Source of the DNA: an archaeon
GTDB taxonomy: Archaea > SpSt-1190 > DYHY01
Direction of reading: 5' to 3'
Assembly (NCBI GenBank): GCA_037442745.1
Contig: JBBIPP010000011.1
Span: 1 to 45,641 of the forward strand
Length of the DNA: 45,641 bases
Part shown: piece by piece, positions 840-33,833 of the stretch
How positions within the stretch are numbered: the first letter of the stretch is position 1
Layout of the letters: each line of letters starts with the position of its first letter
Position numbers and translations under genes: made by a program
Notes under the pieces: model-generated
What the model saw: only the letters and a program-made list of their open reading frames with translations
Told to the model about the DNA's origin: nothing
Database searches by the model: none

Positions 840-843
840 TCGC

Positions 844-1251: not shown

Positions 1252-1282
1252 TATACCTTGAGAAACCCGAATGTCCGGGCTT

Positions 1283-2551: not shown

Positions 2552-2557
2552 GGAAAA

Positions 2558-3251: not shown

Positions 3252-3324
3252 TGGGCCCGGCCGGAATTGAACCGGCGGCCTGCGCTGTGTGAGAGCGCTG
3301 TCATAACCACTAGACCACGGACCC
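3252..3324 (-). tRNA. tRNA-Val(CAC)
   Basis: GGGTCCGTGGTCTAGTGGTTATGACA-GCGCT-CTCACAC-AGCGC-AGGCCGCCGGTTCAATTCCGGCCGGGCCCA forms a full cloverleaf. CCA is not encoded. Confidence 0.95.
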
Positions 3325-17235: not shown

Positions 17236-19631
17236 AACTGGGAAGGCGCGGATTCCTGAGAGCGGTCGAATCCCTGATAGCAATTGTAATGATTCTCGCG
17301 ACTTTTCAGGCTTTTGTCAACTGGAGCGCGCCAGTGAGAACAACTGCCACTACAAGGCAGACCGGCTATGACATTCTCGGGGCGTATTCGGATTCCGTCT
17401 CCCTTGCAATCCGGGACTTTTCCGCTTTCGACCAGTTCGTATCCTATGCGGTTCCCTCAAGCTTCGCATACAAAGTAATGGGGGATTTTTTCACGCCAAT
17501 ATCGACAAGGGGCGTTCCCGGACCAGTGACAGTCAGCGTGGATTTTCCCTCAATAATTGACCCTGAGGAGATTTTCGTTGCTGACCTGAATTCGGAGGAA
17601 TACCCGTCGTCAGTAACATTCAACTATTACAGAATACCTTTCGCTCTGCAAAACAAGGGGGCGGGAGCAGTCTTTGACGCCCCTATATACCTTACTGCGG
17701 GAATTCCGAACCTTGACTCCAACATGGACGGAACCGCCGATTTCCCAGAAATATCCTCAATCGACCTCTATCTTGACGGGAAAAGGACGCCTTTCATACT
17801 CCATAACCTAATTGACAACAACAATACTGCGCTTGTCCCGACAATACTCTTCAACGCGACAATTTCGGAGGGTGGCTCGAAACACGGCTACCTCTACTTT
17901 TCAACCGGTGGAGTTTCAGGTCTCGGAAAAATCCTCCCGGTCGAGAGAACTGAAGTGGAGGCTCAGGCCAGTCAGAACATACGGATATTGACAAGGGCAA
18001 TTGAAAGGGCGCCGAGAGCCACAATAACTTTCATTGAGCCCGCTGGAGCCCCGAAAACTGTTTTTGTCCTCTCGAGAATAGGGTATTTCTCGGCAATCCC
18101 GAGGAACCGCTCAAGTTCGCTTTCGTATTCTGAGAATGCGTTTCAGTTCGTCCTGAACAACTCCGGGAATATCTCAGTCTCAATTGACAAGGCTAGCGGG
18201 GAATATTCAGTTTTCGATTCCGGCGGCTCCAAAATTTTCTCCGCCCGACCACTTGAATCTGGAAGGTCCTTTTCAGTAACAATACCTCCTCATCTGGTCA
18301 ACGCAACCAAGTCTGTCGGAAAGGAGACTGTGCACTGGAGGGTGAACGGGACTGCCGGAAGAATAGACTTTTTCCTGACCCTCTTTGAAAAGGCCGAGAG
18401 AAACCAGATTCTCGTTAAACGCACATTCATTCCGGCTGGCGCGGGAACATATTCATTCGCTTTCGATTCGGTCGGATTTCCTGCTCCGGGAAGCATTTCC
18501 TCTGAATGGCCTGACGGGACATATTCCTCCGAGAGAAAGGGCGTGGTAATAAGCGGGGGCGCTCCCCTCGATGTTGCAGTCTATTCGGATTCCCTTGGGA
18601 GGATAGATTTCAACGGTACGCATTTCAGCTACGGGAGCACTAGAGACGTCTCGGCTTTCTATGCCCGGACTCCGATAGTCTCCTCAACCCTCTATGTCCT
18701 AGGAAACGCACTATCGGCAAGCGCGAGACCTAGGGGGATTTTTCCCGGGGACAAGCTCTCAATTGACTCTTCCTCAATTGTAATAACAACCTCTCCCACG
18801 CCAATCCGGTTCGTGCATTCCTTCTCGGATTCCGGGTTCGACGTTGCAATAGCGAATTTCACAATAAGGAGGCGCTTCAACCAGACAATTGCCATCTCCT
18901 GCGATATTGAAGGGAGGAAAATATTCTCGAACCTGGTCGTCCCCCCGTTCAATTCGGTATCCGATTACAAATACCTTGAGAAGCAGTATGCGATTCCCTC
19001 AACCTTCTTCCTTGACGGCGACAACTCAATATACTGCCAGACGAACCAGACGAACATTACAATAGAGTCGGTCGCGATAAAGGACATCTCCCTCACCGAA
19101 GAGGAGGGGGTTTACACAATCCCGATAATAGTCGAAAACTACGGCGGGGCTGACAGGACTTTTGAGGTCTCGCTTGACTTTGACAAGTTCGGAATTTCCC
19201 CGGAATCTGGAAGGGTGTTTGTCAGGGATCCGGAAACCAGGACAATTGAGATGCGGGACTTTTCCGGAAACGTCTTGTCCCTCAGAATCCCGGCTCCCCA
19301 AGGGGGACGCGGAACGAGGGAAATTGCAATTGCGGGGACGGAGTCAATTTACCTTGACGGAACCCTCCTTGCGGAGGATATTTCATACGGAGGAGCTCCT
19401 GTTTATTTCCCTGTCTCCCTTGGGGACAACCCGGAATTCTCCGCATATGCGGACATCGGGGAGGGCTTTTCGAGCTCGAACACCTACTGGGTCTCCCCTC
19501 CTGACAACCCGTTCTATTCCGACAAGGGAATATCCCCGACAGCGGACGCCACAGTTTCCCAGATTTTCACTTTCGACACTGAAACTGGAAGAGGGGCGTC
19601 AGTCAAAATAATGCTATGGAGGAAAGCCTGA
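17232..19631 (+). CDS. Large (799 aa) pilin-anchored adhesin-like protein
   Basis: Class III signal RRG/FLRAVESLIAIVMIL; long beta-rich body with many N-x-S/T sites. Confidence 0.8.
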   Translation: MKLGRRGFLRAVESLIAIVMILATFQAFVNWSAPVRTTATTRQTGYDILGAYSDSVSLAIRDFSAFDQFVSYAVPSSFAYKVMGDFFTPISTRGVPGPVTVSVDFPSIIDPEEIFVADLNSEEYPSSVTFNYYRIPFALQNKGAGAVFDAPIYLTAGIPNLDSNMDGTADFPEISSIDLYLDGKRTPFILHNLIDNNNTALVPTILFNATISEGGSKHGYLYFSTGGVSGLGKILPVERTEVEAQASQNIRILTRAIERAPRATITFIEPAGAPKTVFVLSRIGYFSAIPRNRSSSLSYSENAFQFVLNNSGNISVSIDKASGEYSVFDSGGSKIFSARPLESGRSFSVTIPPHLVNATKSVGKETVHWRVNGTAGRIDFFLTLFEKAERNQILVKRTFIPAGAGTYSFAFDSVGFPAPGSISSEWPDGTYSSERKGVVISGGAPLDVAVYSDSLGRIDFNGTHFSYGSTRDVSAFYARTPIVSSTLYVLGNALSASARPRGIFPGDKLSIDSSSIVITTSPTPIRFVHSFSDSGFDVAIANFTIRRRFNQTIAISCDIEGRKIFSNLVVPPFNSVSDYKYLEKQYAIPSTFFLDGDNSIYCQTNQTNITIESVAIKDISLTEEEGVYTIPIIVENYGGADRTFEVSLDFDKFGISPESGRVFVRDPETRTIEMRDFSGNVLSLRIPAPQGGRGTREIAIAGTESIYLDGTLLAEDISYGGAPVYFPVSLGDNPEFSAYADIGEGFSSSNTYWVSPPDNPFYSDKGISPTADATVSQIFTFDTETGRGASVKIMLWRKA

Positions 19632-19634
19632 AAA

Positions 19635-20024
19635 ATGCGCGGAAGAAGAGCACAGTTCTTCATAATTGCGTCAGTGATAATTATTCTGAACCTACTTGCA
19701 ATTGGCGCAATTGTCCGAAAGAGCTATTCGGGGAATTCGGAGAGGCCGAGCCAGGAGATTGCAATTGCCTCAGATTTTAACCGGACTGTCTTTGAGATCT
19801 ACAAAAGCCCCCAGGCGTTTCGGAGGAACATCCAGGCGCTTCAATTGGGAATCCAGAAGGGCGCGAGCTTCTCAAGCCAGATTTTCATCGAGTGCATGGG
19901 AGAGACCGACTGCTCGAGAGCCCGGATAGGGGAATGCATATCGAGCGACTGCAACACAACAATACTTGTCAAGGGCACTTCAATGGAAATTGGGACCGAT
20001 TTTTCCGGAAGAATGGGCCGCTAG
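19635..20024 (+). CDS. Minor pilin-like protein
   Basis: Class III signal RRA/QFFIIASVIIILNL. Confidence 0.8.
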   Translation: MRGRRAQFFIIASVIIILNLLAIGAIVRKSYSGNSERPSQEIAIASDFNRTVFEIYKSPQAFRRNIQALQLGIQKGASFSSQIFIECMGETDCSRARIGECISSDCNTTILVKGTSMEIGTDFSGRMGR

Positions 20025-20298
20025 GAAATTTCCCAAAAAGTTCCCGAGAGCGCTTTCTTCAGGCTCTCGTCGGAGAGAATTATGTCAAGGCCTGTGCGCC
20101 CGCTTCCGACATATTGGGTTTCTTCCCCTTCAAGGGACGTTTCAATAAGGACTGAATGAGATTGGCTTTTTCAGCCCGAACGCCTAGATTGCCCCTATTC
20201 TGTATCCGGTCTCTGAGAGGACGACTCCTGGCATTGCCATCCCTACTTGCTCTCCCGCAATTTTCGAGAGCTTTTCCGGGTCGAGCTTTCCCGTTCCA

Positions 20299-20808
20299 AT
20301 GAAAAGGCAGACGAACACCTTGCCTGAAGCCCTCCACAGGCACAACATTCCGGCTCACATATCACTTGTCTTTGGCGAGGACAGGCAGGAACGGGGGACT
20401 TTTGAAGGGAATGCGGACTTGATCAAAAACGGGATAGAGGGAGTCTCTCCCAAGATACTGACGCCTTGCCCCGGAACATTCCTATACAGGAGGCTAGAAG
20501 AGGAAGGACGGATAATAATCCCGTGCGGTTTTGACGAAAAGGGGCTGGACAACCTGAGATATTACAACCACAACTTCCCGGTTTTTCTCCCGGAAGGAGG
20601 GCTTGAAGAATTCATTGGCAATTACATTGAATTTGTCGGGAAAATGGCTTCAGGAGAGAGACTGAGGGCGCTCGTCGAAAGAAACGGCGCATCCCATGTC
20701 AGGAACTTTCTTGCTGGAATTGTCAACGCCGGAACCCTGATTGCGAGGAAAAGCATTGAATCAAACTGGGCGAACGCCGGGGAAATCGTTTATTCGGCAT
20801 ATTTGTGA
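20299..20808 (+). pseudogene. C-terminal remnant of a (B12-binding-type) radical SAM protein
   Basis: SLVFGED...ILTPCPGTFLYRRLEEEGRI matches radical SAM C-termini. No CxxxCxxC motif, and the upstream sequence is broken by stops. Confidence 0.65.
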
Positions 20809-20908
20809 ATTTTCGGGATAGCCCTTTCGCTCCCAGCGCTTCAAAAAATGAAAGAAAGAAAAAAACTTTCCTTCGAAAATCTCTAAACTTTTTCCTTTTA
20901 AGAATTAT

Positions 20909-21070
20909 TTAGAACTTCTTTGGGTGCTTTTGGAAGCAATCCCTGCAGTAAACAGGTCTTCCTTCCTTTGGCTTGAAGGGAACTGTTGTTTCCTGGCCGC
21001 AGTCTGCGCATTTAGCCGGGAACATTTCCCTTGGACCCCTTGGCGGTCCTCTTCGGTCTCCGAATGCCAT
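20909..21070 (-). CDS. CxxC-x17-CxxC zinc-ribbon protein (53 aa; below the ORF track cutoff)
   Basis: Manual translation: MAFGDRRGPPRGPREMFPAKCADCGQETTVPFKPKEGRPVYCRDCFQKHPKKF. TATA-like site upstream and T-rich tract downstream. Confidence 0.92.
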   Translation of the reverse strand: MAFGDRRGPPRGPREMFPAKCADCGQETTVPFKPKEGRPVYCRDCFQKHPKKF

Positions 21071-21128
21071 TTTAGGATAGGAATTAATCCCCCTTTATAA
21101 GACTATATTTGGGGTTAAAATCCCGCCA

Positions 21129-21405
21129 ATGAACCTTTGAAAAGCCCATATTTTCAGGGAGAATATCGATAATCAACTGCAAAGATGTGGAGGGGTTCCA
21201 ACCCTTCGGCAAAATCAGTTGTCAGGATAGGGGCTTTGCCGACAGGCGATGGGTCGCATTGGCGGCAAGGAGAGATTGGCTTCCGGTTGTTCACATAAAT
21301 CCCGAGCGCTATGACGAAGGGGACCTGATAATAATCCAGGAAATTGGGGGCGCATATGACTGCGATTATTTCCTCAAGGCAACTGCCTCAGAATTGGTTG
21401 ACTAA
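21129..21405 (+). pseudogene. Small hypothetical gene, probably frameshifted near the start
   Basis: ATG 21129 hits a stop after 3 codons. A shifted frame reads protein-like to TAA 21405. Confidence 0.3.
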
Positions 21406-21440
21406 TTGGCGAAAGAATAGACTGCTTTGGCTTTTTTCGT

Positions 21441-22175
21441 TCAGTTCGAATATTCCGGAACCCGTCTGTATTCTCCAAGACCTGCCGGCTCCAAATAGGG
21501 CGCATGGAAAACCGGGGAGACATTCATTCCCTTCAAAAGCTGAGCAGTCACTTGCCTAACAAGAAGCTCGCCCGCCCGGGGAAGCGCCTGATGCACCTTT
21601 TCATGGAGCTTGACTTCAAACATCTGATAAGGGGAAAGGGTGTCCAGGAGCTCTATTTTCCTTGTGCCAAGCATTGTTCGTCCAAGGACTCCTGAGCCCA
21701 TTTCGTAGGATGGTTTCGATTCTATCCTGAAATTCCCGTCAGAGAGCTCCTCAGGCGGGATTGAATCTGCGAGGACTTTTGCAAGGGGAACAGGGCTCAT
21801 TTTCGGCTTTTTCTCCCCAAGATGGTCCCAAAGGGAGATTTCGACTGCGGAATATTTTCCCTCAGAGGTGAGGAGCGCGCCATACATGTCGTCCGGTTTA
21901 GGGTCGTAGGGAGAACCGAATATTTCGGCCGGAGCCGTGTCAGGAAGGCGGGCTTTTCCCAGAACAGAATAGCTCTCGGAATCCTTCTTCCTCGAGAGGA
22001 CATATGCAACTACTCCGGGCAAAAATGTCTTTCCTTCAGTTCCGGATAGAAGAGAGTCTGACTCGCCCGAGAGGACGAGAATCGCAAGTTCGTCATTGCC
22101 TAGCTTGGAATAATCCACAAAGGGCCTCCTTCTCAGAAGACAGTAGATTGAGTCCAAATCTGGCTCTCCAGGCAT
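21441..22175 (-). CDS. Hypothetical protein with C-terminal HExxH (zincin-like) domain
   Basis: GVLGRT...VKLHEKVHQ...GELLVR. Confidence 0.7.
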   Translation of the reverse strand: MPGEPDLDSIYCLLRRRPFVDYSKLGNDELAILVLSGESDSLLSGTEGKTFLPGVVAYVLSRKKDSESYSVLGKARLPDTAPAEIFGSPYDPKPDDMYGALLTSEGKYSAVEISLWDHLGEKKPKMSPVPLAKVLADSIPPEELSDGNFRIESKPSYEMGSGVLGRTMLGTRKIELLDTLSPYQMFEVKLHEKVHQALPRAGELLVRQVTAQLLKGMNVSPVFHAPYLEPAGLGEYRRVPEYSN

Positions 22176-22312
22176 TCTTTTTTCCCTCCAGGAAAAACAA
22201 TTGTTCCGTTCAGCTTTTATTTTTTCCGTTCTTGCCGGCTTTGCCTAAATAGTGGCGGCTGCCCATAAAGTCATTGATTTGCCTAAAAACACTTACTATT
22301 GTTATGTAACAG

Positions 22313-22690
22313 TTAAGCTTCTTGCGCACCCCAACTGTATTGAACGAATCCCAGATTCACGGTAAAATTGAAATTTTTCTTGAACTTGTCCACATCCTCC
22401 ATAACATCTATTCCATTTGAAGTTATGTCTACAATTGCAGCAATAACTGGCAAAGTGCTACCCACTGTTCTAATAACTTTCCCGTGGATTAACTCTTTCT
22501 CAATCAAGTATTGAAGCGCAAAAACTACTCTATTCTTATCCCACTTCGTTGTCTGCATCAAATCATTTGTTTGGGGCATTTCTGCTCCCACTCGTTTCTT
22601 TTCATATATGAAAGTTAGAAGCTCGCCTGCGTCTTTCTGGATGCCCATTTCAGAGCAAAAACGACAGTTGCCCTTATTAGAGTTTTCCAC
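22313..22690 (-). CDS. Small winged-helix-like hypothetical protein
   Basis: LLTFIYE...VVFALQYLIEKELI...ITSNGIDVME wHTH pattern. Overlaps the res stop by 1 nt. Confidence 0.7.
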   Translation of the reverse strand: MENSNKGNCRFCSEMGIQKDAGELLTFIYEKKRVGAEMPQTNDLMQTTKWDKNRVVFALQYLIEKELIHGKVIRTVGSTLPVIAAIVDITSNGIDVMEDVDKFKKNFNFTVNLGFVQYSWGAQEA

Positions 22691-25278
22691 TATCCTCTGA
22701 TTTCAAGTGTCCTGTTGAACTCTTCCCTGAAGGCCGGCTTCGTCTCTTCGTTGTAGAACGGAAGTCCTACAAGTTTGAAGGTAGCATTCTCGCTGAGAGT
22801 TTCAAGCCTGTATGCTGAAGCAATCTCTCGCAAAAAGTCCTGTTTCCAGGCATCTTTTTGGACGAGGTGGGTTCCTTTAGGCTCGATAAATAGCTGGTAA
22901 TACAGCCACTTGCCGCTTTTCTCCTCTTTCACAAAAAGAACGAAATCCGGCTCTGTTGCAGCTCCGTCTGAAAACCGATATATCTTGAAGAGGGACTCGT
23001 TTCTCAGCAGGTATATGTCGGAAAACTTGACCTTCAGGGCGTCCAGAGAGTCGTTTATGAATTTGACAAAACTCTTCTCCTCATCCGTTCCGTAGTTCTC
23101 ATCATAGACATACCAGTTCTTGGCGCTTATGTCGAGCCGAAGGTCTGAATTTGTTGTTGAACTCATTGGAACTCCAAGCTCCCTGCTTGATGAGTTTTCC
23201 ACGTCTATTGTTATTTGTTTATCTACGGCAACTTTGCTTATGTTGAAACTCTTGAATAGCTTCGTCCCTTTGTATTCTGTGTGTTCCTTCTTTATCTGCT
23301 TCTCAAGCTCAGAAAGAACTGACATCGCAATTTCGAGTTTCTGGTCCTGCGACAGATTATCTACTATCTCAGAGGAGGAAGTAACCTCAACTTCTATGTT
23401 TGAAAGCCAGTTTGCGAAGTCTGTCATTGACTCGATTTTTGGGAAAAGCGGGTGTATCGTGTCGAAACGGTAAAAGTCCAGTTTGTCCATCGCCTTCCTT
23501 AGGACGCTGTTGAATTCCTTGAGTTTGAACGCCTTTGTTTTTCTCTCTTGAGAAACTGGTCGGAAGGTTTCGAATATTACGACCTCTTGGCCTGCGCCCC
23601 CTTTCATATCGTATTTGTAGGCCTTTTGGATGTCAAGGTCGGAGAAGCTTGCTATCCTCGACCGGTCCACTTTCACCTTCTCGTTAAGAAAGATAAGCCC
23701 GTTCTTCCAAAAGTCGGTTTTCTTTAGCAGGTCTTTTACCTTGACTTGAACCACTTTCTTTGGATTCTCCGGAATTATTCCAGTTGTCTTCAAGGCAATT
23801 GAGAGTTCGGAGATGTATTTTGGCTGGTTAAGGCTATGATAGTAGAGCTCCTCAAGGATTTTCAGGTCGTCTGAAGCGTCGTCATATTTCCGCTTGAATC
23901 GGTCTTGATTGACGTTTATGACAAAGGGACAATATCTCGCTCCCCGTCCGATTAATTGAGCTTCTCGAAGTGTAGTTGTTCCGGGTTGGTTGTTGTCGAA
24001 GTCTCTTGTCGTATAGAGCCGCACTATGTCGAAGAGATTAAGCACATCCCAGCCTTCATTGAGCATATCGACTGCGAAAACGAGACGGATGGGGTTGTCC
24101 GAGTCTTCGAGGGAATTGACTACGAGTTGATTGTTCTCGCTCTCTGATTTGGAGTTAACCGATATTGTCTTCTCTTCGGAAAAGTCCTCTCTCAATTCAA
24201 GGGCAAGGTTTTCGAGGGTTATTCCGTTTCTTTCGAAATAGGAGAACGCTTGGGAAATGACCGTTCCACCAGCTTGCCGTTTGAGTTTCTCCAGGTCGGA
24301 CGCCTTCAATTCCCTTATTTTTTGAACAAGTTTTTGGGAGAAGTCTTCTGATTCGGCTATTGTCTTGGATTTCATCAATATTACCGGCTTCATAGTCAGG
24401 TGATTTTTCTCGGCAATTTTTCTTCGGTATTGACTCAAGACGACTGCCTGGAGCGCTCTATCGAAAGTATTGAAATTAGATTGGAGAACCTTCACTTCTT
24501 TCGAATAGCCGTCTCTTCTGAACTCCTTGAGTGTGTATTCGTAGAGAATTTTGTTTTCATACTTTTCCTTGATTGCGGGGTTGCTCAGGTCAAGGGTTGC
24601 AGTATATTCGAGCATAATGTTGGCGGGATTTCTACTGAAAATACCGGCAACTGTGTGTTCCCACGTTGTTTTCGCTTCTTCTTCGTCCCTTCCCAAGTGG
24701 TTTCTCGTCCAAGCGTTTATGTGGTGCGCCTCGTCCGAGATTATTACTATCTTCGTGTTCTCGAACTCCTCATACGTGAGACTGTTCTCTCGTGGGGCAT
24801 TCAGGGCAGAGTGAAGACCTTGTATTGTCGTAAATACTATATTTATGGCATCCTCTGAAGCACCCTCAAGATTGTCTACTTTCTGTATCTTGACCTCTTT
24901 GCCGTCAAGCAGGAGCTTTTCATTGAATAGATATTTCGATGAAGCGAGATTTAGGAAGTTTTCCTGTGTCTTCTTTATTATGTTCGTGCTGTTGACGAAA
25001 AACAAAAAATTGCGATATCCGAGCGTGTAGAGATATAGGACGTTTGCCGCCATAAGCAGGGTTTTCCCGCTTCCCGTAGCCATATGAAAGAGCAGATGCG
25101 TCGGTCTTGCCCGCCGCTGGTCTTTAGTCAGGCAGTAGATAAATCGTCCAATAGCTTCTTTCTGGTATTCCCTTAATGGAAACTTTTGGTTCAGGTTCTT
25201 CTCTATCTCGGAAGGAACCTTGCGGTCAATAAGCCCCTCGTCCGATATAACATTATACCGTTCATTGAGGGAACTCAT
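22690..25278 (-). CDS. res: Type III restriction enzyme Res subunit (SF2 helicase plus PD-(D/E)XK nuclease)
   Basis: HMATGSGKT, DEAHH, LNEGWDV, QLIGRGAR and EPDF...FIEPKG motifs. Confidence 0.95.
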   Translation of the reverse strand: MSSLNERYNVISDEGLIDRKVPSEIEKNLNQKFPLREYQKEAIGRFIYCLTKDQRRARPTHLLFHMATGSGKTLLMAANVLYLYTLGYRNFLFFVNSTNIIKKTQENFLNLASSKYLFNEKLLLDGKEVKIQKVDNLEGASEDAINIVFTTIQGLHSALNAPRENSLTYEEFENTKIVIISDEAHHINAWTRNHLGRDEEEAKTTWEHTVAGIFSRNPANIMLEYTATLDLSNPAIKEKYENKILYEYTLKEFRRDGYSKEVKVLQSNFNTFDRALQAVVLSQYRRKIAEKNHLTMKPVILMKSKTIAESEDFSQKLVQKIRELKASDLEKLKRQAGGTVISQAFSYFERNGITLENLALELREDFSEEKTISVNSKSESENNQLVVNSLEDSDNPIRLVFAVDMLNEGWDVLNLFDIVRLYTTRDFDNNQPGTTTLREAQLIGRGARYCPFVINVNQDRFKRKYDDASDDLKILEELYYHSLNQPKYISELSIALKTTGIIPENPKKVVQVKVKDLLKKTDFWKNGLIFLNEKVKVDRSRIASFSDLDIQKAYKYDMKGGAGQEVVIFETFRPVSQERKTKAFKLKEFNSVLRKAMDKLDFYRFDTIHPLFPKIESMTDFANWLSNIEVEVTSSSEIVDNLSQDQKLEIAMSVLSELEKQIKKEHTEYKGTKLFKSFNISKVAVDKQITIDVENSSSRELGVPMSSTTNSDLRLDISAKNWYVYDENYGTDEEKSFVKFINDSLDALKVKFSDIYLLRNESLFKIYRFSDGAATEPDFVLFVKEEKSGKWLYYQLFIEPKGTHLVQKDAWKQDFLREIASAYRLETLSENATFKLVGLPFYNEETKPAFREEFNRTLEIRG

Positions 25279-27296
25279 CAGGCAGCCTCACCGTAGAACT
25301 GCTTGTTGAGTTTCTTGTCCGCCTCGGAAACTTTGTTGTCTTTGTCGCCAATTTCACTGAAATTGACGTAAAGCTGGTTCTTGTCAAGGCATTCCAAGAG
25401 GAACTTCTTCTGGTTAGCAAGGGAGAGTTCCGAGAAATCTTTTTTGTTCTCTTCGAACTTGCCTGGCATTATGCTGTGGCTGATGAAGGCAGTTTCCTTC
25501 ATTTCCTCCCAGAGTTTCAAGAGTTCCTTTGTTGTCTTTGCGTCCTTGACGGCTTCCACGAATTTCTCGTTTTGCTTCATAAGTTCGCAATAGACGAAGC
25601 TTCCACCGCCTTTCCAATCAGTAATTTTGCTTATGCCCGTTTGGTCGCCCTTTACGACGTTTGTAAGGCGGGCAAAGGTGCTGTTTTTGCCGTAATCGAG
25701 TTGCTCGATTCCGATGAATTTTCTTCCGAGTTTATGTGCGACTGCGCACGTCGTTCCGGAACCAGAAAAGAAATCGAGAACGAGGTCGCCTTTGTTCGTT
25801 GACATTTCTACTATTCGTTTCAAAAGAGCTTCTGGTTTCTTTCCTTTGTTCAAGGTGACGCCACCTTCGGGAGCTATCCCTTCCCAGGATATGTCCTTCC
25901 AGATGTTCGTCAAAACTGTCGAAGGGGTTAATCTTCCGTCAATTTGGCGGACTTTGTTTTCATAAAAAGTCATGACTTGTCCATTCAGAATGTATCTCGG
26001 CCGCATATCCTCTCCCCGTGACTGGAAGTATACTTTGCCGAGATTCTTCTTTGATTTTTCTCTCAAGTCTACAGTCTCTTTACTTGCATCATCATTTATC
26101 GCTGTGAGTCGAAAGACTCTCTCTTTGTTCTGAAGAGCAAATTCGCCCATTTGGTAATCAAAAAACGAACGATATTTCTGCCGTGCTTCTCTGACTGTCT
26201 TACAGCCCAACTTAGTAGCTACGAACATCGCAAGGTCTTGGATTCTCCATTCTTCAGGATTCAACAACTTGTTCTCAACGAGAGAATCGTAATTGGCATC
26301 ATATTCGCACGCCTCGTATTGGGGGTTATACTTCCATCTTTGCTTATCTTTGCCGTAGACAAGGATATACTCAGAGGTTTCGAAGAGACCGAGGTTAACC
26401 ACTTTGAAACCTGTTGGGGCACGCACGCTGACGGTTATTTTATTTATGAAATTGCATCGTTCAAAAACTTCATCCATCAATACATTGAGATAGCCTACTT
26501 CCTTGTCGCTTATTTGAACGAAAATGATGCCGTCGCTTCTAAGCAGCAGTTTGGCGACTTCCAGCCGGTTCCTCATAAAAGTTAACCACGTTGAGTGGTT
26601 GAATTTGTCGTTGTAGCTAAACTCGTCATTTCCAGTGTTATACGGCGAGTCGAGGTAAACCAATTTGATTTTCCCAGCGAACTGTTTTTTTAGCGAATGC
26701 AGAACAAGAAGATTGTTCCCTTTGACGACAAGGTTCTCTTTTGTTGGGTCTATCTCGGTTAGCTTGTGTTCGCCCTTAGCATCAATTTTCTTGAAGTTCG
26801 TGAACACCTTCCTGTCGGTAAGTCGGTCTATCTCATCTGGAGCAAGGGTTTCGTTGTAGAAAATCTCGACTCTCTCTCTCTCTCTCTCTCTCTCTACGGA
26901 TTCCATTCCCCCCTCAAGAACGCAATCTTTGTGAGGCCAGACAAGAACGACCTCTCCGCTCTTCGAAACTTCCCGTCCGTTTGTCGAAAGTCCTATTTTG
27001 TTCTTGAACACCGTATAGGAATCTGGAAGGAACGACTTGTTGTCAACGAATTTGATGAACTTGTCTCTGTCGAAAAAGAAAGTTCCCGACACCTCCACGA
27101 AGAAGTTTTCCTTCAGAACCTTGTTTGAAGCCATTATCTTCAGAAGTTCGGAGTCGAGCTTCAGGGCAAGCTCCATTATTTTGTTCTTCAGAAGTTTGCC
27201 GTCCGCAGTCAGGCGAGCATCTTTTTTCAGAGCTTCCGTCACTTCGGTCAATAATGTCAATTTATCTTCGTCTCCTTCTTCTCTTGGGCTTGCCAA
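25278..27296 (-). CDS. mod: Type III DNA methyltransferase Mod (beta class) with (AG)13 tract
   Basis: KGNNL, YLDSPYNTG (motif IV variant), KKPEALL and DFFSGSGTT. Overlaps the res start. Confidence 0.95.
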   Translation of the reverse strand: MASPREEGDEDKLTLLTEVTEALKKDARLTADGKLLKNKIMELALKLDSELLKIMASNKVLKENFFVEVSGTFFFDRDKFIKFVDNKSFLPDSYTVFKNKIGLSTNGREVSKSGEVVLVWPHKDCVLEGGMESVERERERERVEIFYNETLAPDEIDRLTDRKVFTNFKKIDAKGEHKLTEIDPTKENLVVKGNNLLVLHSLKKQFAGKIKLVYLDSPYNTGNDEFSYNDKFNHSTWLTFMRNRLEVAKLLLRSDGIIFVQISDKEVGYLNVLMDEVFERCNFINKITVSVRAPTGFKVVNLGLFETSEYILVYGKDKQRWKYNPQYEACEYDANYDSLVENKLLNPEEWRIQDLAMFVATKLGCKTVREARQKYRSFFDYQMGEFALQNKERVFRLTAINDDASKETVDLREKSKKNLGKVYFQSRGEDMRPRYILNGQVMTFYENKVRQIDGRLTPSTVLTNIWKDISWEGIAPEGGVTLNKGKKPEALLKRIVEMSTNKGDLVLDFFSGSGTTCAVAHKLGRKFIGIEQLDYGKNSTFARLTNVVKGDQTGISKITDWKGGGSFVYCELMKQNEKFVEAVKDAKTTKELLKLWEEMKETAFISHSIMPGKFEENKKDFSELSLANQKKFLLECLDKNQLYVNFSEIGDKDNKVSEADKKLNKQFYGEAA
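26870..26895 (-). repeat. (AG)13 simple sequence repeat inside mod
   Basis: Plus strand reads (CT)13 and encodes V-ERERERER-V, currently in frame. Confidence 0.95.
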
Positions 27297-27398
27297 AAAT
27301 TCCTTCCCAGTTCAGGTCCCACTTAACTCTCGGTCCCCGTATCCTCGGAGGTGTGATTCTTGGAATGCCAAAACCTATTGAGCGTTTTTTTCGTTTAA

Positions 27399-28178
27399 TC
27401 AACTTTCTCTCCTTCCTTGGTTCTGACGACCAAATCCTTCCCCTGCGAGGTCAAATCCGCCCGTCAACCAGCTTATTTTGTCCAAATGTATTCCTTGCTT
27501 TCTGCTCTTCGCCTTGCCCTTTATGTCGACTTTCAAGTTGCCTTCTCTCAAGGATTTATCAAACTCTTTCGAGAGCTGTGTGCTGTTTGGATTTGTAGGC
27601 CAGACGTCAAGAGAAAACGAGACAACTTTGTCCAAGTCTTTTATTCGTTCACCGAGTTCCCGCTTGTCCGTTAGCTGATTTATTGTCAACTGCTCTTTCT
27701 GATTATGGTATTGATTGAAGACTTCTGACAGCAAGCGTATAGGTGCGTTTCTTCCCACATCCTTCTTTGATTCGTAAACTATTGCACTCTCGGCTAAATC
27801 GATAAGGAAGGTGCTTACCTCTGCCGCTTTCCGACTTTCAACTTTGAAGTCCTTGAGACTTTCATCGAAAATGGTCTGCGTCCGGTTCTTTATCTTTCCG
27901 AGCCGCCCGTAGATACATTCGCCATCACAAGTTATTCCGCCAAATTTCCAGTCAAATCCTTCCGATAAATCTTCTTTTTTCGCCTTCACTAATAGGTCGT
28001 TTATGTCTGTCTTTGAATTTACGACGGAGAGCAGAAGTTTTCTCCGTCGCTCAATTTCATCCTTTGCCGACCCGAAGTTGGTGGTCAATTTGGCTTCGAA
28101 AGAAAGACGGGCAAACCTAAGCGTGCTGGCCATCTGTAGAAATCCCGTTTGTTTCAATTTAAAGGTTTTTTCAGTCAT
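27399..28178 (-). CDS. Hypothetical protein (DUF4747-like, tentative), possibly C-terminally truncated
   Basis: 259 aa with IYGRLGK, STFLID...IVYES and SFSLDVWPTNP. First gene of the cassette. Confidence 0.65.
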   Translation of the reverse strand: MTEKTFKLKQTGFLQMASTLRFARLSFEAKLTTNFGSAKDEIERRRKLLLSVVNSKTDINDLLVKAKKEDLSEGFDWKFGGITCDGECIYGRLGKIKNRTQTIFDESLKDFKVESRKAAEVSTFLIDLAESAIVYESKKDVGRNAPIRLLSEVFNQYHNQKEQLTINQLTDKRELGERIKDLDKVVSFSLDVWPTNPNSTQLSKEFDKSLREGNLKVDIKGKAKSRKQGIHLDKISWLTGGFDLAGEGFGRQNQGRRES

Positions 28179-28315
28179 TTTCCGTTAAATCGCCTCTTTC
28201 CGTCTTTTTCGGTTTCAAATACCGCCCCGCTATCTTTGCCCAGAAAGTCTCTGATTTGCCCATAAAGTCAATCACTTCTCCGACTTGTTAGGCAAAGCCG
28301 TTCTTGCCCGGTTTC

Positions 28316-28340
28316 TATCAATAATTGTTATCAATAATCA
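28316..28340. promoter_or_regulatory. Possible Fur/Zur-like metal regulator box
   Basis: TATCAATAAT-TGT-TATCAATAAT, with an internal imperfect dyad resembling TGATAATnATTATCA, upstream of the ZIP remnant. Confidence 0.35.
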
Positions 28341-28363
28341 TTTAAGGGGGACGGAAAGAAGGG

Positions 28364-28735
28364 ATGCAGTTGAGGTTTTGACATATTCTCTTGAATAGTC
28401 GTTCTTGTGAGCCTTATTTTCATTGCCGGGTTCGCGACCATTTGGGTAAAATCCGCCATCCTGAAAAAGGTCGTTCTCTTCCTTGTGAGCTTCTCCGCCG
28501 GAGCGCTTTTCGGGGAAGTTTTTTTCCATCTCCTGCCGGAGGCTGTCGAAGAAACAGGGGCTTGGACATTTCGGTTTCAATCTTCGTAATTGCCGGGATT
28601 GGAATATTCTTTATTGTCGAAAAATTCATTCGCTGGAACCGCTGCCACCTCGAGCCGCCGAAAAAGCACCAATTCCCTCCGGCATATGTTTTCCTGTTTG
28701 CGCTTGATCTCTGTTTCCTCGAGCTTTTCAATTGA
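28364..28735 (+). pseudogene. ZIP (ZupT) family metal transporter fragment, frameshifted
   Basis: LVSFSAGALFGEVFFHLLPEA in one frame and AGIGIFFIVEKFIRW in another. The C-terminal half is absent. Confidence 0.8.
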
Positions 28736-28738
28736 ATA

Positions 28739-29050
28739 TTGGTTTCGGTTTCTTGCAGCGGAATTCTGTACTTTTTATCGTTAATTCCTTTCCGGCCCGC
28801 AATTGTGGCAACCGCATTTCTCAAGGAGTTAAGTGCCCCTTCTGCGCCCCGTTTTGGGAAAATTCTCGCAATTGTTTTCTATTTCCTTCTCGGGCTCTTT
28901 TTGGAATTTTTCCTTTGGACGGAGGACCTGATAAAAGCAGGTGTTCCTAGAATGGTTTCAAAGGTTCTGGCAGTCGCATCTGTGATTGCTGTCCATGTGG
29001 CAATCTTGTGGTTACACCTTTCTTGGACAAATTCGAATTTGATTTACTGA
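28739..29050 (+). CDS. Hydrophobic hypothetical protein or gene fragment
   Basis: 103-aa ORF with 2-3 TM-like stretches; start uncertain. Confidence 0.35.
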   Translation: MVSVSCSGILYFLSLIPFRPAIVATAFLKELSAPSAPRFGKILAIVFYFLLGLFLEFFLWTEDLIKAGVPRMVSKVLAVASVIAVHVAILWLHLSWTNSNLIY

Positions 29051-29075
29051 AGTTTATTGGAAAATTTGTGTAGGG

Positions 29076-29153
29076 TGGTAGCGGGGGAACGATTTGAACG
29101 TCCGATCTTCGGGTTATGAGCCCGACGAGCACTCCAGGCTACTCTACCCCGCT
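29076..29153 (-). tRNA. Initiator tRNA-Met(CAT)
   Basis: AGCGGGGTAGAGTAGCCTGGAGTGCTCG-TCGGG-CTCATAA-CCCGA-...GTTCAAATC...CCCCGCTACCA. Has A1-U72, three G-C pairs in the anticodon stem and an encoded CCA. Confidence 0.96.
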
Positions 29154-29245
29154 ATATTCTTCGAAGGGGAACTCTCCTGCCTTTATATGATTTTATCTGG
29201 GGAGGGAAAATGCTTAATAAGTGAACTGTTCACTTTCCACGAAAA

Positions 29246-30322
29246 ATGGCAAATTCGATTGCAAAGGTAAGGGCGCCTACGAACATTGCCTTGGTGAAAT
29301 ATTGGGGGAAGAACCCATATTTCGAGAAATACAACATACCGACAAAGAGCTCCCTCTCCTTCTCTGTCGAAGGTCTCTACACTGAGACAATTGTCGAGAG
29401 AAATGACAGGGGAAGCGGGAAAATTGACTTCACGTTGAACGGCAAGAGAATACAGAATTCCTCCCCGGAATTCTCCTATGTCTCGGAATTCTTCGAGAAG
29501 GCTTTCGCAGTCTGGCCATTTATGCAGGATTCGGATTATTCAATCTCCTCAGAGAACAATTTTCCGACCGCAGCCGGTTTCGCTTCCTCTGCCTCAGGTT
29601 TCGCCGCCCTTGCATTGGCAGTCTCGAAATGCCAAGCAGGGTTCCTTGACAGGTATTCGAAAGACGAGAAAGCCCTCTCAGTTTTCGCCCGCCTAGGTTC
29701 GGGGAGCGCAACTAGAAGCATCCCGTTCAGGGGAGGTCTTGTACAATGGAAAAGGGGTCTTGACCCGAGGGATGCGCCGAAAGAGAAAAGGGAGCCGACT
29801 GAAGCCGAACTGTTCTCGAGCTTTGCCGAGTCAATCCTCCCACCAGAGCATTTCAAGGATCTCCGGCTCTTCTATGTCAAGGCAGATACAGGAGAGAAGA
29901 AAATAAAGAGCAGGGCTGGGATGAAGCAGACAATCTCAACGTATCCACTCTATTGGGACTGGGTAAAACACGATGAGAACGTCCTCCTTCCGACAGCAAT
30001 TGAATCAGCCAAAAAAATGGATTGGAGCGAGCTCTTCCGCATGACAATGGCGCTATCGGACGGCCTCCATTCCGCAATTCTCTCGACTGCGCCCTCAATC
30101 TCCTACCTGAACGACACTTCAAGGGAAATTGTCTCGGGAATTAACGAACTGAATTCCGAAAGAAATGTCTCGGCCTACACATTCGATGCCGGTCCTAACC
30201 CAGTAGTTTTCTCGACAAGAGAGTCTGAGGAGCGTGTGAAGGAAATGTTGGAGAGAATTGTCGGCGAAGAGAACATTTTCCGGACAATGGTCGGAAGGGG
30301 ACCGGAATTCCTCAAGGTATGA
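29246..30322 (+). CDS. mvaD: Diphosphomevalonate (or phosphomevalonate) decarboxylase, GHMP family
   Basis: NIALVKYWGK, NNFPTAAGFASSASGFAAL, ARLGSGSATRS, SRAGM and YTFDAGPNP motifs. Confidence 0.93.
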   Translation: MANSIAKVRAPTNIALVKYWGKNPYFEKYNIPTKSSLSFSVEGLYTETIVERNDRGSGKIDFTLNGKRIQNSSPEFSYVSEFFEKAFAVWPFMQDSDYSISSENNFPTAAGFASSASGFAALALAVSKCQAGFLDRYSKDEKALSVFARLGSGSATRSIPFRGGLVQWKRGLDPRDAPKEKREPTEAELFSSFAESILPPEHFKDLRLFYVKADTGEKKIKSRAGMKQTISTYPLYWDWVKHDENVLLPTAIESAKKMDWSELFRMTMALSDGLHSAILSTAPSISYLNDTSREIVSGINELNSERNVSAYTFDAGPNPVVFSTRESEERVKEMLERIVGEENIFRTMVGRGPEFLKV

Positions 30323-30326
30323 GAAA

Positions 30327-31490
30327 ATGGCTCTTACGAGTTCCCCGGGCAAAGTCCTTTTCCTCGGGGGCTATTCCGTTCTCGAGGAGGGAAACCCCGC
30401 CCTTTCATTTGCAGTAACTGATTTGTTGGGAGAGGGCGTTGTAGCTGAGACAAGAGATTCTGACTCGTTCCGGCTACTTTCCCCTGGTTTCGGTATTGAC
30501 TCGACAATTGACCTTGAAAAAAAGGCTCCTAGGAAACCGACTCTCTCGGAAGCGTCGCTAATTATTGCCTTGAACCACCTGAAAGCAAAGGGAAGTCTTC
30601 CTGAAAAGAAATTCTCAGCAATTGTCAGGAATTCCCCGATTTTCGGGAGGTTCTCCTCCGAAGGAAAGACAGGTCTTGGCTCCTCCGCCGGAACGGCAGT
30701 CTCAATTGTCTTGTCCTCTTTTCTTGAGGCCGGCCTTGGAATTGAGGAGAACAGGGAAGAAATACACAAGCTCGCCCAAATTGCCAACTCCCTTTCGACA
30801 GGGGGGAAGGGAAGTGGATTCGATGTCGCAACAGCAGTCTTTGGAACAATTGTTTATCGGAGATTCCCGAAAACAGAATTCTCGGATATTTCCGGGCCGT
30901 GGGATTCTGGGGAAATTGAGAAAGAGGTTGGGAGAGACTGGAAAGGGATGGAAATTGAGAAATTCTCCCTCCCGGAGAAATGCACCCTCCTAATTTTTGA
31001 CATCCTTGGCAAGGGCACTGACACAAAAAAGAATGTCTCTGTAGCACGGGCTCTTTCAGAAAAGCGACCGGATAAATATTTCGAAATAATCTCCGCCCAG
31101 GCAAAATTCGAGGAAATGGCAGTTTCCGCCCTCCGGAGGGAGGAATATTCCAGTTTCCAAGAACTTGTCAATTCCGCAAGGGAAGAGTCTAGGAAATTGG
31201 CGGAAGAAGCAAAGAGGGCGGGACTCTTTGGCTTTGTTCCTGTTGAGCCAGAGTCGGCAAGGAGAACTATTGACTCCGTCCTGAAGGAAGGCCTCGCAGT
31301 TGCCGGAAGGTGCCCCGGCTCAGGAGGGTTTGATTCAGTAGCGTTCCTCTGCAGGAGGGGGGAGGAGAACCCGGGAAGAATTGAGGAAATCGGGAAACGG
31401 AACGGCCTTCCCCTGAAATTACTGCCCTGCAGGCTCGCTCAAGGAGGCGTCCGGGAAACTCCCAAAAACAATTTGGATGGAGTTAGATAG
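30327..31490 (+). CDS. Phosphomevalonate kinase, Erg8-like GHMP kinase
   Basis: SPGKVLFLGGYSVLE, KTGLGSSA, GKGSGFDVATAVFG, YRRF and PGSGGFD motifs. ATG at 30327. Confidence 0.88.
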   Translation: MALTSSPGKVLFLGGYSVLEEGNPALSFAVTDLLGEGVVAETRDSDSFRLLSPGFGIDSTIDLEKKAPRKPTLSEASLIIALNHLKAKGSLPEKKFSAIVRNSPIFGRFSSEGKTGLGSSAGTAVSIVLSSFLEAGLGIEENREEIHKLAQIANSLSTGGKGSGFDVATAVFGTIVYRRFPKTEFSDISGPWDSGEIEKEVGRDWKGMEIEKFSLPEKCTLLIFDILGKGTDTKKNVSVARALSEKRPDKYFEIISAQAKFEEMAVSALRREEYSSFQELVNSAREESRKLAEEAKRAGLFGFVPVEPESARRTIDSVLKEGLAVAGRCPGSGGFDSVAFLCRRGEENPGRIEEIGKRNGLPLKLLPCRLAQGGVRETPKNNLDGVR

Positions 31491-31524
31491 AGTTAAATAG
31501 AATTGATTTGTCTGAAAATGCGAA

Positions 31525-32010
31525 ATGGGAAAACTCGGACGGGAAATTGTTGGAAAGACTGCTGACGAAACAATAAAGCTCCTGAACAAGGCTCTTGCCG
31601 ACGAGTGGCTTGCATACTACCAGTACTGGGTCGGAGCGCAGGTTGTTTCCGGGAAAATGAGGCCGGAAATTGAGGATGAACTGAAAGAGCACGCAGAGGA
31701 GGAGAAAAAGCACGCTGAAATGCTCGCAAAAAGGATTGTGCAACTCGGAGGAAAGCCGATTCTCGAGTTCTCAGACCTCCTGAAACAGGCGAACTGCGGA
31801 TATGATGCTCCGAAGAACCCTAGCACAACGGCAATTGTCGCCCAGAATATCAAAGGCGAGAGGTGCGCAATTGCAATATACAGCTCAATTCTCAAGAAAC
31901 TGAAAGGCTCAGACGACTATATCACATTCAACCTTGTAAGGAAAATTATGGAAGACGAGGTCGAGCATGAGGAAGATCTTGAGAACCTGGCGGAAGACCT
32001 GAGGGGATAA
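31525..32010 (+). CDS. DPS-like / bacterioferritin-related ferritin (DPSL)
   Basis: ALADEWLAYYQYW, EEKKHA, RIVQLGG, the Cys pair ANCG / GERCAI, and DEVEHE. Confidence 0.92.
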   Translation: MGKLGREIVGKTADETIKLLNKALADEWLAYYQYWVGAQVVSGKMRPEIEDELKEHAEEEKKHAEMLAKRIVQLGGKPILEFSDLLKQANCGYDAPKNPSTTAIVAQNIKGERCAIAIYSSILKKLKGSDDYITFNLVRKIMEDEVEHEEDLENLAEDLRG

Positions 32011-32043
32011 TTCCGCAGGAGCAATGGGTGATTGAACTCTTCT

Positions 32044-32556
32044 AGCCGGTAAAGGGAGTTATTTCCAATTCCAACATGTTCTTCGCCAGCTTTCCTGATG
32101 ACAGCATTGACCTGTCTTTCAGGTATTTCACAATTCTTCTGGCAACCGGAATTTGAGCGCTCCTCATACTCTCAATTGTCGCCGGAGAATCCCTTGTCTG
32201 GGCGGGTCGGTATTGTGCATTCTTTCTTGCCGGCTTTTTCGCGTCCTCCGCCATTTTGCATCTGTCTGCCGAGCTCCTCAGAGGCTAGGGCAACTTCAAC
32301 CAGTCCGCCCGGATAATTGCTTACTGTTCCAAGCCCGAGCATCTTGCAACCAAATAAGGATCGCCCTTTCAGGAAAGGTTCAATTTATGGGAATTGCCTA
32401 TTTTTGGGTTGCTTCTACACCCTCTCTACAATAGAAATATTGGTAATTGTCTGGCATTTGGTTGGAAACTGGAAGGCTGTCATGGTGGTTCTCCTTCCAG
32501 TCAGGTTGATTTCGGCAATAATTCTCTTCGATTTCAGCCTCTTCCCTGTTGGCTAG
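32044..32556 (+). pseudogene. Decayed membrane protein gene
   Basis: Hydrophobic peptide pieces (FRYFTILLATGI*ALLILSIVAG...; IEILVIVWHLVG...) interrupted by stops and frameshifts. Confidence 0.35.
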
Positions 32557-32589
32557 TCGAAAGAATAAAACTATTTATTCCTGCCGGTT

Positions 32590-33192
32590 TTGTTGGTTTT
32601 GCCAGTGGAAAAAATAAAGCTAATCACGCTATCCTACCTTGTCGGCCTCTTCCTTCTCTTGCCAGCGTTCTCTCTCTGCTCTAGCGACTCCGAGTGCTCG
32701 AACGGCGAGAACTGTGCAGTCTCGGTGGGGGAATGCTATCCTTCAAATTATGCGTATAACGAGCCGACGATTCTAAGAGTTCCTCTCGGGGAAAAGAAGG
32801 CGTTCTCGGTTCTTTTGGCATCGCCCTTGAAGGAAACTAGGGAAATCAGGCTCTCATTTTCAGGGGAAGGGAAATATTTCGCCAAATTTGTCGGAGGAGG
32901 AAATTCAATCTCAGTAATTGTCGGAAACGACACGAGAAGGGTGCCAATAACATTCACCGGGGGCGCAATAGGGGAATATTCCGTCTGCATTGACGCAATT
33001 GACTCCGAGCTTCCCGAAATAAACAACACCCACCCAACATCCAAAGCCTGCACAAGCTTCATTGTCGAGTCCGGTAGGAAGGGGATTTTAGCAATAACAA
33101 CGCCCTCTTTGGGCGTTGCCGGAATTGCCATTCTCGGTCTTCTCGGGGGAATTGGCTATTCCCATTTCGGAGGAAGAAGGGAAAGAAAATGA
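32590..33192 (+). CDS. Secreted Cys-containing protein with C-terminal membrane anchor
   Basis: Signal peptide, CSSDSECSNGENC motif, Ig-like core, and C-terminal TM with basic tail. Start may be GTG 32605. Confidence 0.75.
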   Translation: MLVLPVEKIKLITLSYLVGLFLLLPAFSLCSSDSECSNGENCAVSVGECYPSNYAYNEPTILRVPLGEKKAFSVLLASPLKETREIRLSFSGEGKYFAKFVGGGNSISVIVGNDTRRVPITFTGGAIGEYSVCIDAIDSELPEINNTHPTSKACTSFIVESGRKGILAITTPSLGVAGIAILGLLGGIGYSHFGGRRERK

Positions 33193-33818: not shown

Positions 33819-33833
33819 CATTAATTGAAGAAC

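Follow-up and report, generated by a model that had tools for sequence, protein, structure and literature searches.

We describe here an element of 6,063 bp at positions 22237-28299 of a 45,641-nucleotide stretch of archaeal DNA (hereafter the window; contig JBBIPP010000011.1 of GenBank assembly GCA_037442745.1, GTDB lineage SpSt-1190; DYHY01), which carries a Type III restriction-modification (R-M) system and no transposase gene. The element is very probably a non-autonomous cargo transposon, that is, a mobile insertion cassette (MIC), of an IS5-like family whose transposases join a SWIM zinc finger to a DDE_Tnp_1 domain. A first-pass annotation, drawn from the letters of the window alone, had proposed a 6-kb mobile cassette with precise ends, and this was borne out at 22237 and 28299: the boundaries rest on an inverted repeat with an abutting duplication, on breaks in a metagenome assembly graph at the same two positions and on homologous ends in a sister species. 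The window lies in a 1.14-Mb, 20-contig genome (G000), a metagenome-assembled genome (MAG) that is 94.5% complete; the sister species, of the same genus, is referred to as G001.

Results

Precise ends and a 9-bp duplication

Sequence inspection and a repeat search delimited a low-GC element with precise ends, GC content falling from about 0.50 to 0.43-0.46 over roughly 22000-29000. At the left junction, the 9-mer GTTCTTGCC (22228-22236), which is host DNA outside the element, is followed by the 12-mer GGCTTTGCCTAA (22237-22248); at the right junction, the 12-mer TTAGGCAAAGCC (28288-28299) is followed by a second copy of GTTCTTGCC (28300-28308), an exact 9-bp match to the left copy and the other half of a target-site duplication. 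Read inward, the left terminal inverted repeat GGCTTTGCCTAAATAGTGG (22237-22255, plus strand) and the right terminal inverted repeat GGCTTTGCCTAACAAGTCG (28281-28299, minus strand) are identical at 16 of 19 positions, the first 12 bp being perfect. The repeat search recovered the inverted arms as 18 nt with 89% complementarity and the flank repeat as a direct repeat. The terminal 12-mer has just two occurrences in the whole of G000, both at the element ends.

Inside the terminal repeats lie shorter subterminal repeats. Those at the left end, TGCCCATAAAGTC and TGCCTAAAAA separated by a 7-nt spacer (22260-22289, plus strand), have the same orientation as the left terminal repeat. Those at the right end, TGCCCAGAAAGTC and TGCCCATAAAGTC (28237-28269, plus strand; 20 nt start to start), point in the same absolute direction as the left ones and are therefore inverted with respect to the right terminal repeat. 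They are candidates for additional transposase-binding sites, and probably serve as such.

Could these repeats have come to surround an ordinary Type III R-M operon by coincidence? Their shortness is the only point in favour. A scan of G000 for inverted repeats of at least 10 bp abutting direct repeats of at least 9 bp returned the element pair and one weaker pair on contig C2 only. By our own estimate, chance should produce about 0.005 combinations per genome of a 12-bp inverted and a 9-bp direct repeat lying within 20 kb (2.2e10 position pairs x 4^-21). G001 and 44 metagenome stretches, moreover, have homologous ends. We consequently give coincidence almost no credence.

A second context in metagenome contigs

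Two runs of a subsurface metagenome, X1 and X2, hold the window stretch; the evidence that they provide is that of contigs, not reads, and they are not independent of the assembly because both may be its source. A single X1 contig covers 20118-34000. Those of X2 break off precisely at 22237 and 28299, the flank contigs having a 30-letter overlap with the element. One X2 contig has unrelated sequence before 22237, and another has unrelated sequence behind 28299. The last ten letters of the foreign left flank, TCTGGTGGGG, and the first ten of the foreign right flank, TCTGGGGGGG, are identical at nine of ten positions, as would be expected of a target duplication in a run of G, and 12-mers from these flanks were not found in the G000 assembly. 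Because the contig with the different flank joins at 22237, we place the start of the element after the left 9-mer. The interior of the element is represented in X2 by unbranched contigs (22237-26859 and 26904-28299), and the second context therefore seems to hold the same cargo. Mobilisation in trans would be the most economical reading of this result.

Homologous ends, other cargo and a transposase in a sister species

A DNA search of relatives with the element matched only two short stretches of G001, with 87% identity to 22236-22289 and 84% identity to 28236-28300; the likeness is confined to about 55-65 bp per end, and no DNA match was found in the other 15 genomes of the phylum. The right-type end of G001, GGCTTTGCCCAACAAGTC..., starts at C15:85141, and the left-type end lies at C1:1091-1102, closing at C1:1102. 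Since both ends abut the same 9-mer, GAGGTTTTC, which is unlike the GTTCTTGCC of the window, the two contigs come from either side of a single insertion, which measures 5,977 bp or more. The 12-mer GGCTTTGCCYAA, searched for in genomes G001 to G004, was found at the two G001 ends and as one lone match each in G002 and G004, with similar counts for a control pattern.

The G001 and window elements have no cargo protein in common. The G001 element holds two small open reading frames (ORFs), a DDE_Tnp_1 transposase gene, a tRNA-Leu gene, a 232-aa ORF and a putative split Type IIG R-M gene. The first-pass annotation had advised searching for the ends with other cargo or with an autonomous partner; G001 and public loci supplied such ends, together with a candidate partner transposase.

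The insertion in G001 is flanked by MetRS and by a YgaP-like gene, the latter adjoining tRNA-Ile. On G000 contig C9, only 141 bp separate MetRS from the YgaP-like gene, and this interval contains no element end. At gene resolution, C9 thus has the empty site for the G001 insertion; the intergenic DNA is too diverged from that of G001 to show a single 9-mer.

Two features of the G001 element deserve separate mention. An ORF with Eco57I, N6_Mtase and TaqI_C domains (L017 13121-14815) runs off the end of C15, and an HSDR_N ORF (L016 3-944) with the same direction is truncated by the start of C1; the two probably belong to a single Type IIG R-M gene that the assembly gap divides, and the order HSDR_N, Eco57I/N6_Mtase, TaqI_C occurs in single ORFs of 845-902 aa in the elements at loci L041, L047 and L062. 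In addition, a tRNA-Leu(TAA) gene (L017 12209-12294, C15) lies directly upstream of the transposase gene and is either a cargo gene or the trace of a rearrangement that removed the SWIM part of the transposase.

The partner transposases are IS5-like with IS903-type ends

The G001 transposase matches Pfam DDE_Tnp_1 (PF01609) at 1.3e-20. Its best NCBIfam model is IS5_2 (5e-33; 114.7 bits against a cut-off of 140; positions 2-287 of 289), and the same model is the best by far for the eight transposases tested, with an end-to-end match (2-3 to 287 of 289) in four of them, that of G001 included, and a match beginning at model positions 47-102 in the other four. Full-length family transposases are about 405 aa long and have an N-terminal SWIM zinc finger followed by DDE_Tnp_1. 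Relatives of the G001 transposase, with 33-55% identity, are encoded at 68 public loci in Dehalococcoidia, other Chloroflexota, Woesearchaeota, Pacearchaeota, Iainarchaeota, Methanosarcinales and a few others; a protein search returned 4,361 homologues at E 1e-20 or better, and those that carry names are labelled 'transposase', 'IS4/IS5 family' or 'IS5 family'.

The transposase of ISVa2, which is annotated as IS5-like, is 25% identical over 69% of the archaeal member L029 (E 5e-10). ISVa2 is 1,054 bp long and has a perfect 18-bp terminal repeat, GGCTTTGTTGCGTAATTC, that starts with GGCTTTG like the family ends. Within the IS5 family, the IS903 group is characterised by ends that start with GGC and by a duplication of 9 bp, the latter figure being that of the ISfinder listing. 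On sequence grounds, we assign the family as IS5-like with IS903-type ends. The first-pass annotation had likened the ends to those of IS1595 elements of the ISPna2 group. We rejected this family: the cognate transposases match PF04434 (SWIM) and PF01609 only, with IS5_2 as their best model and no match to PF12762, and the duplication is 9 bp, that of IS1595 being 8 bp.

In a tree of 55 of the 68 transposases, from which 13 partial or interrupted matches and the metagenome copies were omitted, one branch separated 11 archaeal rows from 44 bacterial rows (branch support 99/97). Metagenome transposases show 51-58% identity to the bacterial set and 47-51% to G001. The family is thus present in both domains, with no sign of recent exchange between archaea and bacteria in the sample.

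Varied duplications and asymmetric ends throughout the family

Within 500 nt of the 68 transposase genes, inverted repeats occur at chance level only. A simple insertion sequence (IS) with ends close to the transposase gene was accordingly dropped as a model; multi-copy loci revealed that the element ends lie kilobases upstream. Units of 4,405 bp (three copies) and 3,051 bp (two copies) occur at different sites in single genomes with 99.9-100% identity, and their ends read GGCTTTGCACTAAAAGTC... and GGCTTTGCTCCA... An end consensus built from these units, GGCTTTGCnnnAnAAGTC, was scored across the 68 loci. The right-end motif lies at most 120 nt downstream of the transposase gene at 30 loci and farther away at 10; it was not found at 25, and three had too little sequence. 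Against the same consensus, the left end of the window element scores 12 and its right end 14 of the 14 specified positions. A further 13 sites in G000 score 12/14, none of them paired, a number near the 3-11 sites scoring at least 12 per 1.14 Mb in shuffled genomes (n=5).

Left and right ends could be paired 25 times in the 68 loci. Thirteen of these pairings have an exact 9-bp duplication, two have one with a single mismatch and two are without flank; the remaining ones are weighed in the Discussion. In metagenomes, 44 stretches matched a pattern that combines the left terminal repeat of the window with its first subterminal repeat, and 15 of them have a right end as well: nine of the 15 show exact duplications, four are off by one base in a run of G, one has none and one lacks flank. 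Since one insertion recurs in four contigs, the nine exact cases correspond to six distinct insertions. Altogether, 21 insertions, those of G000 and G001 included, have an exact 9-bp duplication, and all 21 9-mers are different, which is what transposition predicts when the flanking repeat is compared from copy to copy, as had been suggested for the window.

These data bear on the two mechanisms between which the first-pass annotation had left a choice. Terminal repeats with a 9-bp duplication made by a DDE transposase gained support from both the IS5-like DDE partner and the variety of 9-mers. The other mechanism was a site-specific cassette with 13-bp arms around a 7-bp core, for which a tyrosine recombinase would be supplied in trans. 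The junction can indeed be drawn as inverted arms around TTCTTGC, and the right junction can be folded as a short hairpin (28291-28308). However, the differing 9-mers leave no conserved core among the copies, the ends co-occur with a DDE transposase and not with a tyrosine recombinase, and no integrase model matched in the element or in 19000-31500, all of which makes site-specific recombination extremely improbable, and we reject it. GTTCTTGCC resembles the element's own end GGCTTTGCC at six of nine positions and can pair with that end in the short hairpin; this could hint at insertion beside end-like sequences, or it could be coincidence. Scans with Rfam and for promoters and terminators contributed nothing further.

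The orientation of the subterminal repeats is a further trait of the family. In every end pair inspected, these repeats (TGCCCAnAAA...) have a single absolute orientation, identical for the left and the right end: in the window, in G001, in L041-43 and L054/55 (Dehalococcoidia) and in 10 metagenome elements. The left subterminal layout of the window also recurs in G001 and at the left ends of the 44 metagenome stretches.

Delimited elements in public loci measure 2.9-11.4 kb and metagenome elements holding a transposase 2.4-4.2 kb, so that every delimited transposase-bearing member of the family falls within 2.4-11.4 kb. Four smaller metagenome forms (946, 1,300, 1,504 and 1,990 bp) have no intact transposase; the 1,990-bp form, found at one site in four contigs, holds only a 43-aa transposase remnant. 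R-M-type domains (N6_N4_Mtase, N6_Mtase/Eco57I, Methylase_S, HSDR_N and RE_XcyI) occur in nine of 17 annotated genome-derived elements, the other eight having Fic, Bro-N or unrecognised ORFs, and in none of 10 metagenome-derived elements. The cargo of the family is probably under-called, because the ORF filter sometimes kept antisense ORFs in GC-rich loci. One of the nine elements, L029 from a Woesearchaeota genome (11.4 kb), carries a PLD-helicase, an Eco57I-type methylase, a PD-(D/E)XK nuclease and a homologue of the window protein p125.

Some public loci show further particularities. L041, L042 and L043, the 4,405-bp copies of a single Dehalococcoidia genome (99.9% identical), comprise two without a 9-bp duplication and one with a single mismatch; recombination between the copies could have swapped their flanks. 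The contigs L048 (3,393 nt) and L057 (4,088 nt) span element ends within one base (1-3392 and 1-4087), and represent either multi-copy repeats that the assembler collapsed and cut out or excised forms that exist free. In L027 (Dehalococcoidia), a pair of family end motifs lies in facing orientation at a distance of 133 bp (14275-14407), and this pair could be a miniature derivative of the family, similar to miniature inverted-repeat transposable elements.

A Type III R-M operon as cargo

The element contains four ORFs, all on the minus strand: p259, Mod, Res and p125. The earlier statement that no recombinase lies inside held: none of the four genes matched a transposase or integrase model of Pfam, NCBIfam or PADLOC, and a profile built from the family transposases detected no remnant of such a gene within 22237-28299.

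Mod (25278-27296, minus strand) is a 672-aa Type III methyltransferase with matches to N6_N4_Mtase (PF01555, 6.6e-45), to the Type III-specific N-terminal domain TypeIII_RM_meth (PF12564, 3e-19) and to PADLOC MTase_III (4e-188). Res (22690-25278, minus strand), the Type III restriction subunit of 862 aa, matches the SF2 helicase-type domain ResIII (PF04851, 2.9e-30) and PADLOC REase_III (3.8e-131, 25-856 of a 873-position profile). The two genes overlap at 25278 and, to judge by domain content, constitute a Type III R-M system. The small protein p125 (22313-22690, minus strand) has a weak winged-helix match in Pfam (DnaD_N, E 0.003) and is a cargo accessory gene product; its homologue in L029 (36% identity over 115 aa, E 2e-18) is encoded directly after the methylase gene.

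Within Mod, a (CT)13 tract (26870-26895) lies in frame and encodes ERERERER. The X2 contigs break at this tract. Over the interval 20118-34000 as a whole, the X1 contig exceeds the window by 2 letters. Variation in repeat length could switch the system on and off, which makes the tract a candidate phase-variation switch. Phase-variable Type III mod genes (phasevarions) occur in Haemophilus, Neisseria and Helicobacter. The Mod gene of the window resembles these in having a simple-sequence repeat inside the mod frame and in the hints of length variation between samples; it differs in its uncultured archaeal host and its place on a transposon, and in that switching is a candidate property only.

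The remaining protein, p259 (27399-28178, minus strand; 259 aa), has no Pfam match at E 0.01. It is called DUF4747-like from Atlas matches to DUF4747 clusters, with a score of 0.95, and from precomputed PF15931 matches on p259 itself and on two homologues (68% and 41% identity). According to PMC7542560, DUF4747 unites lambda RexA with the cytoplasmic components of prophage exclusion systems. The element genes include no evident RexB-like partner. Across 401 genomes, G000 included, p259 has a relative only in G161, with 32% identity and not adjoining Mod or Res. The 121 nt between the right terminal repeat and the start codon of p259 presumably hold the promoter of the cargo, which is one minus-strand operon read inward from the right end in the order p259, Mod, Res, p125.

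Genomic surroundings

Compared with its G001 counterpart (L015 3040-18314), the interval 20024-31515 has no ORF of at least 100 aa in common, and only the tRNA-Met gene (29076-29153) is common to the two at the DNA level; both flanks are syntenic. The mevalonate-pathway genes of G000 (29246-31490) also lie within this variable span. The cassette could accordingly be part of a larger island tied to tRNA-Met, its ends being incidental, and the low GC content does continue to about 29000, beside the tRNA gene. Yet neither an integrase nor an att-like repeat was found in 19000-31500, the end architecture matches the transposon family in detail, and the assembly graph branches at the element ends and not at the borders of an island. 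We therefore consider an island very improbable, and read 20024-31515 as a variable region beside tRNA-Met into which the cassette inserted; the region may be variable, but its variability would not explain the cassette.

An unrelated multi-copy IS, with sequences ending in TGTTGAAACCC and 20 occurrences in G000, breaks the assembly. It is present at window positions 1-50 and at the ends of C2, C5, C6, C7, C10, C11, C12, C15 and C17; the window starts inside one copy, and C17 is bounded by the IS on both sides. The weaker repeat pair of G000 (C2:130877-141091) encloses 10.2 kb and combines a 9-bp direct repeat (ACTTTTCCA) with an adjoining inverted repeat of 10 bp (TTGTCCTGAA). Its inverted repeat has no extension, the GC content is 0.473 against 0.49, and about 0.08 such pairs are expected by chance; the pair may be nothing.

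Discussion

We propose that the family transposase would bind the terminal repeats (GGCTTTGC...AAGTC), probably together with the subterminal ones (TGCCCAnAAAGTC), would cut the target with a 9-bp stagger and would join the element ends to it, after which repair of the gaps would leave the 9-bp duplication GTTCTTGCC. The binding steps of this model are suggested by the repeats, and the cut-and-join chemistry is modelled on IS5/IS903-type DDE enzymes. As there is no transposase gene inside the window copy, any movement of this copy needs an enzyme from a related element. Because the family transposase was found neither inside 22237-28299 nor in G000, we regard the window copy as a non-autonomous derivative.

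Several observations weigh against a cargo transposon of this family that is moved in trans. End scans of the assembly indicate that G000 holds a single copy of the element. A family transposase was not found in G000 by tblastn with the G001 transposase, by a protein search of the genome or by a hidden Markov model (HMM) of 55 family transposases run on a six-frame translation, the best HMM match scoring 18 bits (C2:90591-90986) inside the unrelated TGTTGAAACCC IS; given a MAG that is 94.5% complete, a partner is neither present in the assembly nor excluded from the genome. The G001 transposase is only 338 aa long and is without the N-terminal SWIM part, and with that part missing it may be inactive. 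All eight transposases tested score 107-135 bits on NF033579 transpos_IS5_2, below the 140-bit cut-off, for which reason we call the clade IS5-like and not a certified member of IS5. Eight of the 25 end pairings in public loci have no duplication, including two of the three copies of the 4.4-kb element. In X2, the depth of the element (13.9 and 12.3) is below that of its flanks (15.9-16), a poor fit to two full copies, and the foreign flanks differ at one base and may not belong to one insertion. An empty site for the window insertion, which the first-pass annotation had expected as a single GTTCTTGCC in relatives, was not found, G001 being non-syntenic over 20024-31515. Finally, neither an excision joint nor a circle junction was found in three runs, a result that is uninformative given that these are contigs only.

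Some of these points would equally suit an immobile relic, which inserted once as an autonomous transposon, lost its transposase through internal deletion or cargo replacement and never moved without it. The single copy, the lack of a cognate transposase in G000 and the X2 depth all agree with such a history, and derivatives without an intact transposase, such as the 1,990-bp element, do exist in the family. On the other hand, neither the 12-bp terminal repeats nor the duplication has a single mismatch, the search for a transposase remnant inside the element found none, and the second pair of flanks in X2 joins the same ends around what seems, from the unbranched interior, to be the same transposase-less cargo. 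We therefore think a relic unlikely, and retain the non-autonomous cargo transposon as our preferred reading.

How does the element compare with known systems? MIC231, of the Bacillus cereus group, derives from IS231 of the IS4 family; the window family is instead IS5-like with SWIM-DDE transposases, and the window element has an archaeal host and a 6-kb defence operon as cargo. In the description given in PMC3129680, MICs are transposase-less cassettes bounded by IS ends and transporter ISs (tIS) are ISs with passenger genes. Like the window element, MICs have IS-type inverted repeats and a target duplication around passenger genes and no transposase, and their movement is stated there to depend on the cognate transposase of a related IS (PMC3129680), a dependence that for the window element we can only infer. 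Examples of tIS are the ISPna2 group of IS1595, ISPst2 and ISArsp9 (PMC6305408, PMC3129680). The autonomous relatives of the window cassette, with a single transposase and passenger genes between inverted repeats, fit the tIS description, whereas the window copy differs from tIS of the ISPna2 group in having no transposase and in not being IS1595 (no PF12762 match; a 9-bp and not an 8-bp duplication).

The family shares with the IS903 group, as represented by ISVa2, a DDE_Tnp_1 transposase and terminal repeats of about 18 bp that start with GGCTTTG. It differs in its added N-terminal SWIM finger, its asymmetric subterminal repeats, its IS5_2 scores below the cut-off and its size, known IS903-group elements being about 1.05 kb long with a transposase only.

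The closest precedent in cargo comes from Furuta, Abe and Kobayashi, 2010, who describe R-M genes with inverted repeats and 8-bp duplications and no transposase in Xanthomonas oryzae and Neisseria gonorrhoeae (PMC2853133). The repeats of these units, of 26-65 bp, are reported there as found nowhere else and are not assigned to a partner family, and a transposase acting in trans was raised by the authors (PMC2853133). The window element, in contrast, has a 9-bp duplication, a Type III cargo and an archaeal host, and its ends are linked to one particular, abundant transposase family. Since MICs, tIS and transposase-less R-M units have all been published, the kind of element is already known, and the first-pass suggestion of a possibly undescribed element family was in this respect too strong. 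The novelty lies in connecting such an R-M cassette with a defined, abundant transposase family, in the conserved asymmetry of its ends, in its archaeal host and in a Type III cargo whose mod gene contains a repeat tract. Open-access keyword searches, with ISfinder and article supplements outside their scope, returned no description of the transposase clade or its R-M cargo.

A broader interpretation, which we offer tentatively and consider less than even, is that the clade is an undescribed, abundant IS903-like SWIM-DDE lineage of cargo carriers by design, which moves R-M and other defence modules in archaea and Dehalococcoidia, including cassettes moved in trans. All delimited transposase-bearing elements measure at least 2.4 kb, and oriented subterminal repeats tell the left end from the right.

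The assignment makes what had been an unexplained R-M island, marked by odd repeats, into a defined element whose mode of movement is known, and the transposase-less R-M units of 2010 gain a concrete partner family, at least in this lineage. It also documents cargo-carrying DDE transposons, and a cargo-only derivative of them, in small-genome uncultured archaea, where they have hardly been reported. The family may serve as a practical marker for mobile defence modules in Dehalococcoidia and DPANN-type genomes. A 2019 survey of Thaumarchaeota states that passenger-gene transposons were not detected in archaea (PMC6563490); if the carrier lineage is real, archaea would gain a class of cargo DNA transposon that this survey did not detect.

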